From an uncultured bacterium (GTDB lineage Bacteria; Bacillota_I; Bacilli_A; RFN20; CAG-826): a stretch of 64,000 bases of DNA. Location of the stretch: assembly GCA_949291375.1 (NCBI GenBank), contig CASEVI010000001.1:68980-132979 (forward strand), written 5' to 3'. The notes below the pieces were generated by a model that worked only from the letters and a program-made list of their open reading frames with translations, ran no database searches and was not told where the DNA came from. Of this stretch, positions 1,264 to 46,745 are shown piece after piece; positions within the stretch are counted from its first letter, which is position 1; every line of letters begins with the position of its first letter. Position numbers and translations under genes: made by a program.

Positions 1264-1478
1264 ATTTTTATCCTCCACTTTAAAAATAAAATAATACAAA
1301 TAATTAACGTTATATACGTTTTAAAGTAGTTTCAAAAAGATTTATGTGAATAATAACGACTTTTCTTTTTTCCATGCGCCTTATTATATTAAATTAATTA
1401 AGATAAATAAACTTATAAGTATCTTAAATATTAATATTTAAGATTAAATAAGTTATAATTTTTAGGTAATTAAATTTT

Positions 1479-3496: not shown

Positions 3497-4093
3497 ATGA
3501 AGGAACTTTTATCAATAATTAATTTAACTGAAGCTTTTAAATCATTCCCATCAATTGGCGAAAAAACCGCAGAAAGAATGGCTTATGCCATTTTAGATAT
3601 GGATCATCGAAAAGTAGATTTTTTAATTAACTCAATTAAAGAAGCGAAAGAAAAAATTCATGCTTGTCCTAATTGCGGTGCATTAATAGATACAAACGAA
3701 TGCCCTTATTGTGGAAAAGATAGAAGCCACGATATCTGTATTGTTGTTTCTTATCCAAAAGATATTTTAACTTTCGAAAGAACAGAATCTTATAAAGGAA
3801 TTTATCATTGTTTAAATGGAGAAATATCTTCTTCAAAAGGTAAAACTATTAAAGATTTAAACATTGATCAATTAACTTATCGAATTAAAAAAGAAAATAT
3901 CAAAGAATTAATTATTGCAACTAATCCAACAATTGAAGGCGAAACTACTGCTTTATATATAGCAAAAATCTATGAAGATTATCCTATTAAAGTATCTCGT
4001 CTTGCTCATGGGATTCCAATGGGCTCAAATATTGAATATAGTGATAATTTAACTCTTTTGAAAGCTTTAGAAAATAGAACGGATTTAAAATAA
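3497..4093 (+). CDS. recR: Recombination mediator RecR
   Basis: PSIGEKTAER HhH, C4 zinc finger CPNC...CPYC, Toprim IIATNPTIEGE, SRLAHGIP. Confidence 0.97.
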   Translation: MKELLSIINLTEAFKSFPSIGEKTAERMAYAILDMDHRKVDFLINSIKEAKEKIHACPNCGALIDTNECPYCGKDRSHDICIVVSYPKDILTFERTESYKGIYHCLNGEISSSKGKTIKDLNIDQLTYRIKKENIKELIIATNPTIEGETTALYIAKIYEDYPIKVSRLAHGIPMGSNIEYSDNLTLLKALENRTDLK

Positions 4094-4108
4094 ATATAGG
4101 TATAAATT

Positions 4109-4735
4109 ATGTTTATAAGTTTTGAAGGAATAGATGGATCTGGAAAATCAACAATTGCAAAAATGGTTGATGAAAGATTAAGGAAAGAAGGTTATCAAAC
4201 AGTTTTAACACGCGAACCTGGCGGAGTAAAAATCGCAGAGGATATACGTGCTATTATTTTAGATAGAAACAATACAAATTTAGATGACCATACTGAAGCT
4301 CTTCTTTTTGCTGCAGCAAGAAGACAACATTTAAAAGAAAGAATATTGCCCGCTTTAAAAGAAAATAAAATTGTTTTATGTGATAGATTTGTAGATTCAT
4401 CTTTAGCTTATCAAGGTGGAGGAAAACATCTTGGCGTAGATGAAGTTTATAGTATAAATATTTTTGCTACTGATAATCTTTTACCAGATTTAACCCTTCT
4501 TTATGATATGGATCCAAAAGATGCTTTAAAAAGAATAGATAAAAATAAAAATAGAGAAGTTAATCGTTTAGATTTAGAAAAATTATCTTTTTATAATACA
4601 GCTAGAGAAACTTTTTTAGATTTAGCAAAAAAATATCCAAAAAGAATTAAAATTGTTGATGCTTCTAAATCCATCAATGAAGTTTTTGAAGATTCAATAA
4701 AAATTATCGAAGAAAAATTGCATGAAAGTAAGTGA
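4109..4735 (+). CDS. tmk: Thymidylate kinase
   Basis: FISFEGIDGSGKST, TREPGG, CDRFVDSSLAYQG. Confidence 0.97.
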   Translation: MFISFEGIDGSGKSTIAKMVDERLRKEGYQTVLTREPGGVKIAEDIRAIILDRNNTNLDDHTEALLFAAARRQHLKERILPALKENKIVLCDRFVDSSLAYQGGGKHLGVDEVYSINIFATDNLLPDLTLLYDMDPKDALKRIDKNKNREVNRLDLEKLSFYNTARETFLDLAKKYPKRIKIVDASKSINEVFEDSIKIIEEKLHESK

Positions 4736-5690: not shown

Positions 5691-5715
5691 GTTTTACTTA
5701 CGAACGAAAAAAATT

Positions 5716-5755
5716 GACTTCATTTTTCTTTCATTCGAAAAATGAGGCTTTTTTT
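5716..5755 (+). terminator. Intrinsic terminator of dnaX-holB operon
   Basis: Hairpin GACTTCATTTTTC / GAAAAATGAGGC followed by a T7 tract. Confidence 0.75.
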
Positions 5756-5789
5756 ATTAAAAAATATGAAAAAAATATGAAAAAAGTAC

Positions 5790-5818
5790 TTTACAAAAAT
5801 TATTTTTCTTCATAATAT
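5790..5818 (+). promoter_or_regulatory. SigA-type promoter for the downstream ncRNA candidate
   Basis: TTTACA (5790-5795), 17-bp spacer, TAATAT (5813-5818). Lies after the holB terminator with no + strand ORF downstream. Confidence 0.55.
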
Positions 5819-5826
5819 AAAGTCAA

Positions 5827-6189
5827 TAAAAGAGTTCAGGGAACGATATCCTTAACTTCCTAATCATAGATTTTCTAAAAAATACTAGATGGATAATATA
5901 ATATTTTTTAAAAAAAGAAGTCTAGGAAAAATAGAAAATGGGAAACCAGTAATTAAACAATTACTTCTATGATATCCAGAAAGATCCTTTGTTTAATAAT
6001 TATTATTTAAAGATAATGAAGACAAAGTAATAAGATGTAAAGAAGAATTTGTAGGAAATGGAATTAGGAATTAAGAAAAGATTACCAGCTAGGAATTAAG
6101 GATAATCTAGTCTTAATGGGAGAGATAGTATAAAAAAACTATCGATGATGTGTAAGGTGGTAGAAAATTAAGTAAACTGAACTCTTTTA
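5827..6189 (+). ncRNA. Unassigned large structured RNA (about 363 nt)
   Basis: Perfect 13-bp closing stem (5827-5839 / 6177-6189) plus at least seven internal complementary pairs including a GAAA-tetraloop hairpin. G-rich and C-poor on the + strand, no ORF, upstream promoter. Confidence 0.7.
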
Positions 6190-6195
6190 GTTTAT

Positions 6196-6687
6196 TTAAA
6201 CTACAAGTTCATATGCTAATCGTGGAGAACCATTTTTAAGATAAATGACTCCACATTTTTTAAAGTCAAATTTTGCTAAAACATATTGAAAGACTTTATT
6301 ATCTTCATGTGTATCAATACGAATATGATCAGTTTTTGTTAAACAAAAAGCTAAGACATAACTAAAAACATGGTTTATCTTTTGAGCACTCGCTAAAGAA
6401 TGAATAGTTCCATAAGCTGAATTATCTACCCATTTTCCATTTTCAATATATTTATAGGTTGGATCTTCTCCTAAAATAAAGGCAAAAGAGAATAATATTT
6501 CGTTATTTTCATTAATTCCAAGATATAAATTACCATCTAATATATGACTCTTAATTAATTCTAAAGATGGGTTATTATCTCCCCATTGATTAGGATTATT
6601 CGTTTTTTTCATATATTCTCTAGCTATTTTATAGACTTCCATAATCTCATTAAGTCTATTTAAATTAGCTTTAATAATATTTACCAT
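6196..6687 (-). CDS. GNAT family N-acetyltransferase
   Basis: 163 aa, HSLAS motif A region, [12 protein letters not shown]...FKKCG. Start overlaps the glyA stop. Confidence 0.8.
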
Positions 6688-7955
6688 ATTAAAAAAGTAG
6701 GATGTTTTTTATTTAAGTTTACAACTTCTTCTTTTAAAGAAGACAAAACCTTTTCATCATTACGATTGTTAATTGCTTTATCAATAATATTTGCAACTAA
6801 TCTAAAATCATCTTCATTATACCCTTTAGTGGTCATCGCAGGTGTCCCAATTCTAATTCCAGATGTAAACATTGGTTTTTCTTTATCTCCAGGAATAGAA
6901 TTTTTATTTACGGTAATATTAACTTTTTGTAATAAATCTTCTACTTCTTTTCCTGTAACTCCTTTAGTTGATTTTACATCAAGCAAAATCATATGGTTAT
7001 CAGTTCCTCCACTTATAACTTTATATCCTAATCTCATAAATTCATCTGCTAAAGCTTTAGCATTTTTAACTACGTTAACCATATATTCTTTATAAGAAGG
7101 TTCTAAATCTTCTTTAAAAGCAACTGCTTTAGCGGCAATTATGTGTTCTAAAGGTCCGCCTTGACAGCCAGGGAATAAAGTTTTATCTATTTTTTTAGCT
7201 AATTCTTCATCGTTAGTCATAATAATTCCACCTCTAGGTCCTCTTAAAGTTTTGTGAGTTGTTGAAGTTATTACATCAGCATAACCAACAGGTGAATTAT
7301 GTAAATTTGTAGCAATAAGTCCAGCAATATGGGCAATATCAGCCATTAAATAGGCACCGCATTCATCGGCAATTTCTTTAAACTTCTTAAAATCGATTTC
7401 TCTAGGATAAGCACTTGCTCCACAAATAATTAAATTAGGTTTTACTTCTAAAGCTATTTTTCTTACTTCATCATAATCTATTAAACCAGTTTCAATATTA
7501 ACTCCATACGTAAATGATTCATAGTCTTGACCAGAAAAAGATAATTTATAACCATGAGTTAAATGACCTCCGGCATCTAAAGACATGCCTAAGATTTTAT
7601 CACCATGATTAATTAAACTTCTTATAGCAGCCATATTAGCACTACTTCCAGAATGTGCTTGGACATTTACATATTTAACATTAAATAGTTTTTTTAATCT
7701 TTCTCTAGCTAAGTCCTCGATTTTATCGATATATTGACACCCTCCATAATATCTTTTTGAAGGATATCCTTCAGCATATTTATTAGTCAAAATACTTCCT
7801 TGAGCTTCTAAAACAGCTTTAGAAACAAAGTTCTCACTAGCAATTAACTCAATATGTTCATTTTGTCTTTGGTGCTCTAATTCGATAAAATCAAATATTT
7901 CTTTATCTTCTTTTTCTAAATAACTCATTATTATGTTCTCCATTTTTATATACAT
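6681..7955 (-). CDS. glyA: Serine hydroxymethyltransferase
   Basis: [25 protein letters not shown] lysine in [13 protein letters not shown]. True start may be 7943 or 7928. Confidence 0.98.
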
Positions 7956-44825: not shown

Positions 44826-45032
44826 CTATTTTTTAAGTCCGTATTTTTTATTGAATTTATCAACTCTACCATCAGCTTGAACGAATCTTTGTTTTCCAGT
44901 ATAGAATGGATGGCAATTTGAACATGTATCAACTCTAATTTCTTTCATTGTTGATTCTGTTTCAAATGTTGCACCACAAGAAACGCATGTAACTTTGCAT
45001 TTTTGATACTTTGGATGAATTCCTTCTTTCAT
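44826..45032 (-). CDS. rpmE: 50S ribosomal protein L31 (zinc-binding type)
   Basis: [13 protein letters not shown]...[21 protein letters not shown]. Start moved to ATG 45032. Confidence 0.97.
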
Positions 45033-45167
45033 AATCTTTACTCCTTCCGCCTTGAACTTTCTTATATTCTTGTTCAAAGAAAGCATGTATCGAGATTATA
45101 GAAAAGAAAGGGATAAATATCAAGGAAAATATGCTTTTTTAGATATATTTACTTATATTTTACAAGT

Positions 45168-45774
45168 TTATTTTCCATTAATTGCGTCAAATGGATTTTT
45201 CTTAGTATAGTGAGTAGTAGGAATATATGTAAAAATTGTACTTGCTAATATTGAAATTAATAATAAAAGTAAAAATTCAATTATTCCAATATTTAAATAA
45301 CTAGCTTTAACTAAAATAAATGAAGTTAAATAATTGTTAATTACAACAACACAAACTATCGTTCCTATTAAAGATAAAACGAAATTTATTAAAGCAATAC
45401 CTAATCCTTCAAAGAAGAAGATAGAAAATACATCTATTTTTCTACATCCTAACGCTCTTAAAATTCCAATTCCCTTTTTTCTATAAGAAATACTATTAGA
45501 TATAAAGTTTCCAAAAAGAATCATTGAAAAATGGCTAGAAACACTCCGCAAATAGAAAGCCCAAATTTTAAAACCTTAAATGAGCCTGAAATATCATTAA
45601 TTCTAGCAACATTATTATTGTCAATAACAAATTTATTACTATCTAATTTATATTTTTCTTTTAAATTATTAATAGTAAAACTATCTATTTCATCATCATT
45701 TTTTAAATTGCATGAAGAAATAGATAAAAGTGAAAAAATAAAACGAATAAATTAATTTTTCTTTTTAATAACAT
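45168..45774 (-). pseudogene. Frameshifted lipoprotein-signal / FtsX-type ABC permease gene
   Basis: MLLKRKINLFVLFF, a shift at a T6 run, SLLSISSC...GVFLAIF, a shift at a T5 run, then SMILFGNFISNSISYRKKGIGILRALG. Two 1-nt deletions restore one ORF. Confidence 0.65.
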
Positions 45775-46311
45775 AATGTACCCTCAAAATTAGTAAAACT
45801 AAATCTAAAATAAATAAAATTGAAAAAATAATGAAAAAAAACAAAAATACAGTCGATTCATTAGTATCAATAAAAGCAAACCAAAAAACAATTTCTGTAG
45901 TGTAGTTATAATATATTGGATTTAAACAAGCATACGTAATTTGAATAAGAAGGATAGTAAAAAGTAATATCAAAAAACTCAACAATATTAAAAATAACGG
46001 ATCTTTTTTTATTCTTCTTTTAGTTTATTTATTAATATTTTCTTCTTTAGTTATTTTTTCTATGTTTTCATTATTTTCTTTATTATTTACATCGTTTTCT
46101 TTTGTCTCTCCATAAAAAAGTTCATCAATAGAAATATTAAAAATAGTATTGAGTTTATCCAAAATATCTAAAGAGATTTGATTTCTTCCATTTTCTAAAT
46201 ATGAAACAGCTTGTTTACTAATTCCTATCTTTTCACCTAATTCTTCTTGCGAAAGATTTTTATCTTTCCTTAAATTTTTAATTCTTAATCCAATTTCTCG
46301 TTACTAATCAT
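45752..46311 (-). pseudogene. Disrupted XRE-family HTH regulator with C-terminal membrane domain
   Basis: ATG 46311 with a frameshift at codon 5, then EIGLRIKNLRKDKNLSQEELGEKIGISKQAVSYLENG, an in-frame TAA at 46025-46027, and the same frame continuing into the two-TM ORF 45752-45985. Confidence 0.75.
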
Positions 46312-46666
46312 ATTCCTAAACATAATAAATCTATAAAATATTCGACATCAAGATATTTAAATAATATCTATATAACAATTTTTGTGGTTTTATAAGACAA
46401 TTTTCAATTAATATCATCATTTTTTATCCACACATAATTAAGTCATTAGGTAAATCAAAGCAGTTATTATAAACTTCAAAATATTTATCAATTAAACATC
46501 TAAATATGGATAAAATAAAGAAAAAAATTATTAATACCAATTTAAGTATAGAAACTAATAATAAAAATTGTTTTTTCATGAATTTCTTCATTATTTTAAA
46601 TTCATATAAATTTAAAAATTATATAAAAACAAAATTATTTTATAACAAAGAATTTTAAACAATAAA

Positions 46667-46712
46667 TCAACTATTAGTTGACTTTTATTAAATTTAGTCA
46701 ACTGTTATTTGA
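46667..46712. promoter_or_regulatory. Tandem TCAA-N7-TTGA palindromes (possible operators)
   Basis: TCAACTATTAGTTGA (46667-46681) and TCAACTGTTATTTGA (46698-46712), centres 31 bp apart. Confidence 0.4.
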
Positions 46713-46745
46713 CTAAATTATCTATAAATAAAAATTAATGATTAA

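Follow-up and report, generated by a model that had tools for sequence, protein, structure and literature searches.

Bacterial RNAs that are large, intricately folded and of unknown function are few: OLE, GOLLD, ROOL, HEARO, raiA and a small number more. All of these proved unusual: HEARO serves IscB as its guide RNA, OLE forms a membrane ribonucleoprotein, and ROOL and GOLLD assemble into RNA cages. The OLE RNA (RF01071) works as a ribonucleoprotein (PMC9723947, PMC12054373), and ROOL, GOLLD and OLE form RNA-only homo-oligomers (PMC12286853). The locus considered here lies in a 64-kb window (64,000 nucleotides) of contig CASEVI010000001.1, assembly GCA_949291375.1, from an uncultured bacterium; the DNA has 26 % GC and fits the standard bacterial code well. 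Positions 5827-6189 of its + strand, between holB and a convergent pair of genes, very probably constitute an independent structured non-coding RNA gene of a new family. The product is referred to below as the holB-site RNA.

An initial annotation, made from the letters of the window alone, had taken this segment for an unassigned large structured non-coding RNA with its own promoter, probably of a new class. That leading inference is supported by the identification of the RNA in eight species, by selection on its sequence, by covariation of its helices and by the lack of an Rfam match. The helices have been preserved through the replacement of nearly all the sequence beyond two duplexes.

Homologues, selection and distribution

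Loci fetched for comparison are designated by L-numbers, of which L007-L010 were obtained from a scan of genomes with HolB and a further, graded series of homologues from a HolB protein search. L007-L010 belong to metagenome-assembled genomes labelled 'uncultured Bacilli', with HolB proteins 76-92 % identical to that of the window; the next relatives, Thomasclavelia, stand at ~34 %. Together with the window they form group A, in which an RNA of 361-365 nt occupies the same site, preceded by holB and followed by GNAT and glyA genes on the opposite strand. A search by nhmmer with the window RNA alone detects L007-L010 at E = 1e-48 to 1e-80, and a profile from the group A alignment (A2), which itself contains these four sequences, detects them at E = 1e-93 to 1e-108. 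Group B comprises L021/22, L023/24 and L045, counted as three species, with HolB 50-53 % identical, the same gene order and an RNA of 343-347 nt in the gap. Groups A and B together thus represent eight species-level genomes. The first 13 nt of the group B RNA are identical (UAAAAGAGUUCAG), its 3' end reads CUGAGCUCUUUUA or UUGAACUCUUUUA, and it shares an identical hairpin, hp2 (UAAUU-AAAC-AAUUA). Searches by nhmmer with the window RNA, the group A profile or the L021 RNA do not detect the other group, so homology across the groups rests on synteny, the promoter, the closing helix P1, hp2 and collinear helices.

The RNA gene is under purifying selection, with conservation well above that of silent sites and flanking spacer. 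Relative to the window, the RNA is 96 % identical in L008, 95 % in L007, 83 % in L009 and 80 % in L010. The corresponding values are 69, 70, 65 and 62 % for third codon positions of holB, about 50-61 % for its 4-fold sites in the same four pairs, and 87, 85, 64 and 64 % for the spacer upstream of the RNA.

Rfam 15 was scanned at gathering scores with the 64-kb window and eight related loci, and at E <= 10 with 480-650-nt stretches from the window, L021 and L045. The gathering-score scan returned zero matches in the window; its only match in the related loci is the small signal recognition particle (SRP) RNA upstream of dnaX in Thomasclavelia (L011:1834-1921, 57.5 bits), which shows that the scan works. 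At E <= 10 the three stretches gave noise only, with no RNase P RNA, transfer-messenger RNA (tmRNA), SRP RNA, 6S RNA, T-box, riboswitch, OLE, ROOL, GOLLD, HEARO or raiA. The comparison with Rfam recommended in the initial annotation therefore yielded no family at any threshold tried. Searches of the literature returned nothing relevant on an RNA of this kind or in this lineage.

As far as seen, the family is confined to two groups of uncultured Bacilli, each of genus rank, with 26-28 % GC and a relationship to Candidatus Onthovivens. A cluster of HolB proteins 42-44 % identical to that of the window includes Candidatus Onthovivens merdipullorum, which places the clade among uncultured low-GC Bacilli. 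Other lineages lack the RNA at this locus. In L029-31, which are near group A by HolB, the GNAT and glyA genes are kept and the 3' ends of holB and GNAT overlap by 15 nt (L029:4749-4763); the RNA is consequently independent of GNAT-glyA. L028, also near group A by HolB and the nearest lineage to lack GNAT-glyA, has a 780-nt non-coding gap (3802-4581) between holB and yaaT, in which no remnant of the RNA, GNAT or glyA is found. In L025-27, L032-34 and Thomasclavelia, holB is directly followed by yaaT, and relative to these loci the RNA and GNAT-glyA form an insertion between holB and yaaT. At least two losses or relocations of the RNA have occurred among close relatives, a pattern that an accessory, lineage-specific RNA fits more easily than does RNase P RNA or another essential RNA. 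A blastn search of phage and plasmid collections with the RNA gave no match. The pattern AAAGAGTTCAG-N{310,340}-CTGRRCTCTTT was also run against JGI metagenome contigs and IMG/VR; its 9 + 1 matches, all in unrelated 40-52 % GC DNA and most resembling coding sequence, are at chance level and were set aside.

Fold and covariation

The architecture is that of a molecule closed by P1, within which P2 opens onto H2 with its arm, a central hairpin with a linker and, after the junction UAAUC, a 3' hairpin domain. The parts of the window RNA are as follows.

5827-6189, + strand: structured RNA of 363 nt, a member of group A, defined by fold, homologues and paired consensus.
5827-5839, + strand: P1, 5' strand, UAAAAGAGUUCAG, invariant in 8/8 sequences.
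5843-5844, + strand: P2, 5' side AC, pairing with GU at 6172-6173 in the consensus structures.
5847-5862, + strand: H2, 5' strand, pairing with 6090-6104 (15 bp, one bulged C), from the alignment and RNAalifold.
5863-5973, + strand: long arm, comprising H3 (5863-5869/5967-5973), H4 (5870-5877/5932-5939) and H5 (5885-5890/5920-5925), from the alignments.
5939-5948, + strand: GNRA (GAAA) tetraloop hairpin, group A only, read from the group A alignment.
5949-5964, + strand: hairpin hp2, a side branch of the arm, with a core (UAAUU-AAAC-AAUUA) invariant in both groups.
5987-6027, + strand: central hairpin H6 (5987-5994/6020-6027), capped by 6000-6007/6012-6019, the best-conserved block of group A.
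6028-6089, + strand: variable purine-rich linker with repeated AGGAA words, poorly conserved even in group A (alignment columns 210-275).
6090-6104, + strand: H2, 3' strand, then the conserved junction UAAUC, from the alignment.
6106-6164, + strand: 3' domain, helix 6106-6115/6153-6164 around hairpin 6124-6129/6138-6143, from the alignment and RNAalifold.
6177-6189, + strand: P1, 3' strand, CUGAACUCUUUUA, then a U-rich tail, GUUUAUUU; the P1 substitutions in homologues all fall here and all give G-U.

The window RNA has a minimum free energy (MFE) of -73.3 kcal/mol (z = -3.98), and 0/100 shuffles are as stable. Its composition is A 44.6, U 29.5, G 17.4 and C 8.5 %, in agreement with the G-rich, C-poor + strand described at the outset. 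A stable fold is likewise predicted for the reverse strand (z = -5.37), and folding energy alone consequently does not assign the strand. The closing stem, 5827-5839/6177-6189, is a perfect 13-bp pairing, as the initial annotation had it; a perfect inverted repeat of at least 13 bp arises in 5/300 dinucleotide shuffles of the 505-nt gap, and the stem alone is modestly unusual. Because the reverse strand folds as well and such repeats appear in shuffles, the single-sequence evidence for a structured RNA is suggestive, not decisive.

The helices originally drawn by inspection were recovered by both the MFE fold and RNAalifold. These include 5863-5870/5966-5973 (8/8 pairs), 5871-5877/5932-5938 (7/7), 5885-5889/5921-5925 (5/5), 5987-5992/6022-6027 (6/6), and 5847-5862/6090-6104 (15 bp, one bulge), together with the hairpins at 5939-5948 (UGG-GAAA-CCA), 5949-5964 and 6124-6143. 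One helix needs correction: the pairing assigned to 6113-6118/6167-6172 exists, but only 3/6 pairs form as written, the CUUAAU strand really lying at 6112-6117. That helix, 6112-6117/6167-6172, competes with the 10-bp RNAalifold helix 6106-6115/6153-6164. The segment GUCUUAAU of the 3' domain thereby takes part in two mutually exclusive pairings, and both partners are invariant in group A; this dual pairing may be an alternative-structure element or a simple ambiguity.

The consensus of group A contains 90 pairs, is 97.8 % paired and has five compensatory pairs, three of them in H5, a result reached by 1-3/500 shuffles. When the 3' partners are slid by 1-3 columns as a control, pairing falls to 41-49 %. 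The group B consensus (A3) has 84 pairs, 97.2 % paired, with five compensatory pairs, and 5/500 shuffles reach the observed value. A cross-group core (A6) was assembled from the strands of P1, P2, outer H2, two arm helices, hp2 and the base of the 3' domain, which are collinear and flanked by shared words and were aligned with fixed linkers between them. This core of 45 pairs is 97.8 % paired and contains 14 compensatory pairs, a level reached in 0/500 shuffles, and its covariation score is 0.36 vs 0.17 in shuffles. Covarying homologues, which the initial annotation had recommended seeking, exist in two diverged groups.

The changes in the helices are marked. P2 is AC/GU in group A, with a U-G pair in L007, and is extended to 5 bp (AACUU/AAGUU) in group B. 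The outer 8 bp of H2 read AUCCUUAA/UUAAGGAU in group A vs AUUCUUCA/UGAAGAAU in group B, with compensatory change at 3/8 pairs. Within the arm, both sides have changed at 7/7 H3 pairs and 3/7 H4 pairs; one arm helix is UUUUCUA/UAGAAAA in the one group vs ACCUCUA/UAGAGGU in the other, and the next differs at all seven pairs. Two to three helices stack to form the arm, whose apical loop is AU-rich and holds AUAAUAU in both groups. The stem of the GAAA hairpin covaries within group A, being GG/CC in the window, GC/GC in L009 and GU/AC in L010. The closing pair of hp2 is U-G in L045. The central long hairpin of group B is capped by CCUU-AAAG-AAGG, and the tetraloop of the central hairpin falls in the word UUAAAGA, which is common to the two groups. 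In the 3' domain, all group A sequences share an unchanged GAUGAUGUGUAAGGUGGUAGA segment; group B instead forms an 11-12-bp hairpin there.

Strand, promoter and flanking genes

Assignment to the + strand follows from the pattern of substitution. All one-sided pair changes, in both groups, yield G-U pairs, which would be C-A mismatches on the other strand. In P1, all five substitutions are on the 3' strand, each giving G-U, and the 5' strand is invariant; the constraint therefore acts at the level of RNA and not on an inverted repeat in DNA. This asymmetry also suggests sequence-specific recognition of the RNA duplexes on top of pairing. The L021 RNA is 11 kcal/mol more stable on the + strand than on the - strand. 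In group B, a 10-bp hairpin with flanking A- and U-runs lies ~18 nt past P1 (L021 6457-6491, L023 6451-6485, L045 1520-1554). The G-U pattern, the L021 energies, the promoter and this group B terminator together argue for an independent + strand gene. From the position of the promoter and P1, the transcript would start at ~5824-5826 and end just past 6189. The flanking features of the window are these.

5718-5757, + strand: holB terminator-like hairpin (5718-5747) plus T-run; the terminator scan finds 1 site vs 0.2 expected.
5790-5818, + strand: sigma-70-type promoter of the RNA, -35 TTTACA, 17-nt spacer, -10 TAATAT.
6196-6687, - strand: GNAT-family acetyltransferase of 163 aa, the convergent neighbour, co-oriented with glyA (6681-7955), assigned by a structure match.

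The RNA gene is embedded in the gene order dnaX-ybaB-recR-tmk-holB (+), a 505-nt gap, the 163-aa gene and glyA (-, convergent), and then yaaT/PSP1 and rsmI (+). The gap (5691-6195) holds no open reading frame (ORF) longer than 33 aa, and its ORF-free character, the holB terminator and the promoter TTTACA-17-TAATAT were all present as initially annotated, the latter two being recovered by terminator and promoter scans. A coding RNA was considered and rejected: within the RNA, the sole ORF, of 27 aa (5889-5972), is not conserved and meets a stop after six codons in the aligned L010 sequence, and the indels are not multiples of 3. The promoter is kept in 8/8 homologues, with -35 boxes of TTTACA, TTGCAA, TTGTCA or TTGCCA, a 17-nt spacer and -10 boxes of TAATAT, TACTAT or TAACAT, and the distance from the end of the -10 box to the start of P1 is 8 nt in all eight. 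The contigs of L005 and L006, from different assemblies, both end exactly 18 nt upstream of P1, in the promoter spacer (window ~5809); strain variation or low-complexity A/T sequence probably broke the assembly at this point.

The holB terminator hairpin separates holB from the RNA gene, and an A-run upstream of it would make function in both directions possible. In group B loci, the DNA from holB to the promoter of the RNA contains a conserved inverted repeat, TTGACAATT-N-AATTGTCAA (L021:6005-6033, with equivalents in L023 and L045), which could be a holB terminator or an operator. On the other side of the RNA, the 163-aa neighbour matches GNAT acetyltransferases of solved structure (PDB 2pc1, E = 5.7e-12; 3h4q, 2.8e-8), and the original label of 'GNAT' stands on the 2pc1 match. 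It has no Pfam-A or NCBIfam match at permissive thresholds, and represents a GNAT subfamily outside the coverage of the profile libraries. Because L029-L031 keep GNAT-glyA without the RNA, the GNAT gene is context only and is not tied to the RNA.

The wider surroundings are unusually poor in RNA genes. In addition to the absence of Rfam families at gathering score, ARAGORN finds no tRNA or tmRNA in the 64-kb window, and the 8.5 kb upstream on the same 470-kb scaffold (ENA ERZ16268108; L046:1-10000) contains no Rfam family. In Thomasclavelia, the usual Firmicute small SRP RNA adjoins dnaX on its upstream side; in the clade of the window, prfA occupies that side in divergent orientation, a scan there gives no SRP RNA at E <= 10 (window 1300-1478), and ffs must have moved. 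A sub-threshold match to the L31-Firmicutes ribosomal-protein leader (29.5 bits vs a gathering score of 33.3, E = 0.0014) lies at 45041-45079 (-), at the 5' end of a probable rpmE gene, an 86-aa ORF taken from its longest possible start (44826-45086, -). A 1.17-kb stretch at 45576-46745 contains only ORFs of at most 77 aa and has no Rfam match at E <= 1.

Alternatives, proposed role and comparison with known RNAs

Among housekeeping RNAs, only RNase P RNA has a suitable size and layout, and the holB-site RNA could be an extremely diverged form in which all recognisable core motifs are lost. A length of 345-365 nt, the terminal helix, a strong promoter of its own, the housekeeping neighbourhood and high conservation are all in keeping with such an origin, as is the failure to detect rnpB, ssrA, ffs or any tRNA in the window or the 8.5 kb upstream. 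The nesting of P1 > P2 > {arm, 3' hairpin domain} also loosely recalls P1/P2 > P4 > {P5-S-domain, P15-18}. However, three diverged members gave no RNase P, tmRNA, SRP or 6S model at E <= 10, and scans with consensus motifs agree. RNase P CR-I (GAGGAAAGUCC) has no match within three mismatches in the eight sequences, and CR-V (ACARAA...GGCUUA) has one A-rich 3-mismatch match, in L023 only. A P3-like hairpin is lacking, as P1/P2 are directly followed by the long-range H2 in both consensus structures. The motif scan found no tmRNA T-arm or CCACCA end, in line with the negative ARAGORN result; the SRP helix-8 motif GGAAGCAG was not found, and the GNRA hairpin is missing from group B. The group II domain V motif was negative beyond low-complexity near-matches. 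The lack of RNase P, tmRNA, SRP and group II signatures that had been noticed at the outset is accordingly confirmed by Rfam, ARAGORN and the motif scans. A K-turn, an 11-nt tetraloop receptor, the T-box word 'GGUGGUA' and complementarity to the anti-Shine-Dalgarno sequence, looked for by eye in group A, were dropped, as none is conserved in group B. An essential gene would, furthermore, have had to move each time from the locus in L028, L029-31, L025-27 and L032-34, and outside helices there is hardly a place where groups A and B agree, in contrast to RNase P, whose catalytic core is invariant. Given these absences at this locus in sister lineages and the missing core motifs, the diverged housekeeping RNA offered as an alternative in the initial annotation is very unlikely.

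Slightly less remote, though still improbable, is a very large orphan riboswitch-like or antisense regulator, in which the formation of P1 would decide antisense read-through into GNAT-glyA. Antisense-controlling riboswitches are known, the RNA is convergent with GNAT-glyA in 8/8 loci, and P1 with its A-tract, stem and U-tract has the layout of a bidirectional terminator, no other terminator preceding GNAT in group A. Yet group B places a separate 10-bp hairpin and U-run between the RNA and GNAT, so that read-through is not a conserved feature, and L029-31 keep GNAT-glyA with no RNA. The length of 345-365 nt also far exceeds that of known aptamers, the would-be terminator 'loop' measures 337 nt, and no Rfam riboswitch or T-box signal is detected. 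A cis-regulatory leader of the riboswitch or T-box kind was rejected separately: no + strand gene follows, the next gene converges, and no cis-regulatory family of Rfam matches. A CsrB/RsmZ-like sponge that titrates a GGA-binding translational regulator would account for an A+G content of 62 %, a size near that of CsrB, and unpaired GGA/AGGA words in J1/2 (GGGAA), in the loop AUGGAUAA of both groups, in UAGGAAAAA and in the AGGAA repeats of the linker. Sponges of this type carry many (at least seven) conserved GGA motifs in hairpin loops or single strands; the alignments show ~4 conserved unpaired GGA words per group, and many others are part of a helix or belong to the linker, which is not conserved. 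Instead of a row of short GGA-loop hairpins, the RNA has a long-range, nested architecture, and no csrA gene occurs among the genes of the loci examined; a sponge is improbable. Equally doubtful is a relic of a mobile element, whether a TA-flanked miniature inverted-repeat transposable element (MITE) or an orphan guide or structural RNA of an insertion sequence, with the 13-bp repeats as DNA ends. Its perfect terminal inverted repeats, the joint insertion of RNA and GNAT-glyA between holB and yaaT, and the patchiness of the RNA at the locus among close lineages would be explained. A search of the 64 kb for further copies found one only, with matches of up to two mismatches at chance level (10 vs 5.4 expected), and every fetched locus likewise has one RNA copy, always at the same site. 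This check of copy number, suggested in the initial annotation, gave no dispersed copies in the window or the fetched loci. A single, syntenic element, under selection in eight species and with covarying internal helices, does not behave as a MITE, nor would DNA ends restrict P1 changes to the 3' arm and always to G-U. No transposase, TnpB, IscB or recombinase is encoded nearby, and there is no phage, plasmid or viral match and no HEARO match. The remaining suggestion of the initial annotation, a retron-type msr/msd with a1/a2 as terminal helix and a reverse transcriptase encoded elsewhere, can practically be set aside. The terminal inverted repeat is followed by G residues in group A, but the residues after P1 vary (GGG in group A, AAAG or GAG in group B) and the RNA is longer than typical msr/msd RNAs. 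In retrons, the reverse-transcriptase gene comes straight after the RNA and on its strand; at this site the neighbour is the convergent GNAT, and Pfam finds no reverse-transcriptase domain in genes within 5-10 kb at any locus.

The reading that we prefer is a stable ~345-365-nt non-coding RNA of an undescribed family, which probably acts in trans through a protein partner. Since structure is conserved to a much greater extent than sequence, although two duplexes and a few of the purine-rich junctions show no variation, a protein-binding RNA is the most economical model. Action in trans rather than in cis is indicated by the lack of a following + strand gene, by the differing neighbours and by L029, which has GNAT-glyA without the RNA. 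The RNA would be transcribed from its own sigma-70-type promoter as a long-lived molecule, its ends protected by P1, and would act in trans. The invariant duplexes (the P1 5' strand and hp2), with the purine-rich junctions, may present a recognition platform for the protein partner, and the result would be a dedicated ribonucleoprotein or a protein-sequestering RNA, in the manner of 6S, OLE or raiA-type RNAs. An mRNA-pairing small RNA, a cis-regulator or a catalytic housekeeping RNA is less likely, and a role as ribozyme is conceivable, as is self-assembly of the kind reported for ROOL, GOLLD and OLE. In evolutionary terms, the eight sequences seem rather more likely than otherwise to be founders of a new, clade-specific class of large multi-domain non-coding RNAs outside all curated families, forming a ribonucleoprotein or an RNA-only complex or conceivably a ribozyme, that arose or was retained with the holB-yaaT insertion.

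Several points weigh against this assignment. There are eight distinct sequences in two clades, and most pairs never vary within each clade. The cross-group core A6 was built by hand from positional homology and is hence biased towards structure. A covariance model of group A matches group A only under default filters, and with filters off gives only terminator-like or fragment matches in group B loci. The hairpin hp2 and the central domain are at different nesting levels in the two group models, which implies either a plastic fold or an error in part of one model. Group A is without a separate terminator, having only the U-rich tail after P1, and the transcription start, 3' end and stability of the RNA are predictions from the DNA. 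The proposed ribonucleoprotein or sequestration mechanism draws on analogy and on the otherwise unexplained invariance of P1 and hp2.

The distribution of the family is narrow, which limits its reach. A new example, if true, would provide an independent case for what large RNAs still do in modern cells, and its hosts are small-genome uncultured Bacilli, in which each retained gene is likely to matter. The system is also tractable, with a length of ~350 nt, a simple promoter, two highly diverged natural variants, and RNA-less sister lineages for comparison of gene content.

Comparison with known RNAs reveals partial resemblances. RNase P RNA (RF00010/RF00011) is similar in length and likewise has a 5'/3' terminal helix that closes a nested multi-domain fold, its own promoter, a housekeeping neighbourhood and a GNRA tetraloop hairpin. 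The holB-site RNA, however, has no covariance-model signal, P4 core (CR-I/CR-V), P3 hairpin or conserved J-region nucleotides; its sequence is almost wholly different between two related genera, and it is missing at the locus in sister lineages. The OLE RNA is, in the same way, a large, intricately folded and stable non-coding RNA of anaerobic Bacillota, lineage-restricted and of unknown biochemical function. It differs in its ~600 nt, its long invariant stretches and its position beside the partner gene oapA, whereas the holB-site RNA has ~350 nt, little sequence conservation beyond P1 and hp2, and neither a conserved partner gene in its vicinity nor an Rfam match. ROOL, GOLLD and the raiA motif are also large structured Bacillota RNAs of unknown function, and homo-oligomerization is a possible mode for a new ornate RNA; in contrast to ROOL and GOLLD, which are often found in prophages or near tRNAs, the holB-site RNA is shorter and sits in a chromosomal housekeeping cluster. 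The 6S RNA (SsrS) offers a parallel as an abundant trans-acting RNA with paired ends that binds a protein, RNA polymerase, and keeps structure over sequence. It is a single rod of ~180-200 nt with a central bubble, whereas the holB-site RNA, without an Rfam match and with a branched fold of at least three domains, measures 343-365 nt, about twice the length of 6S RNA, as the initial annotation had estimated.

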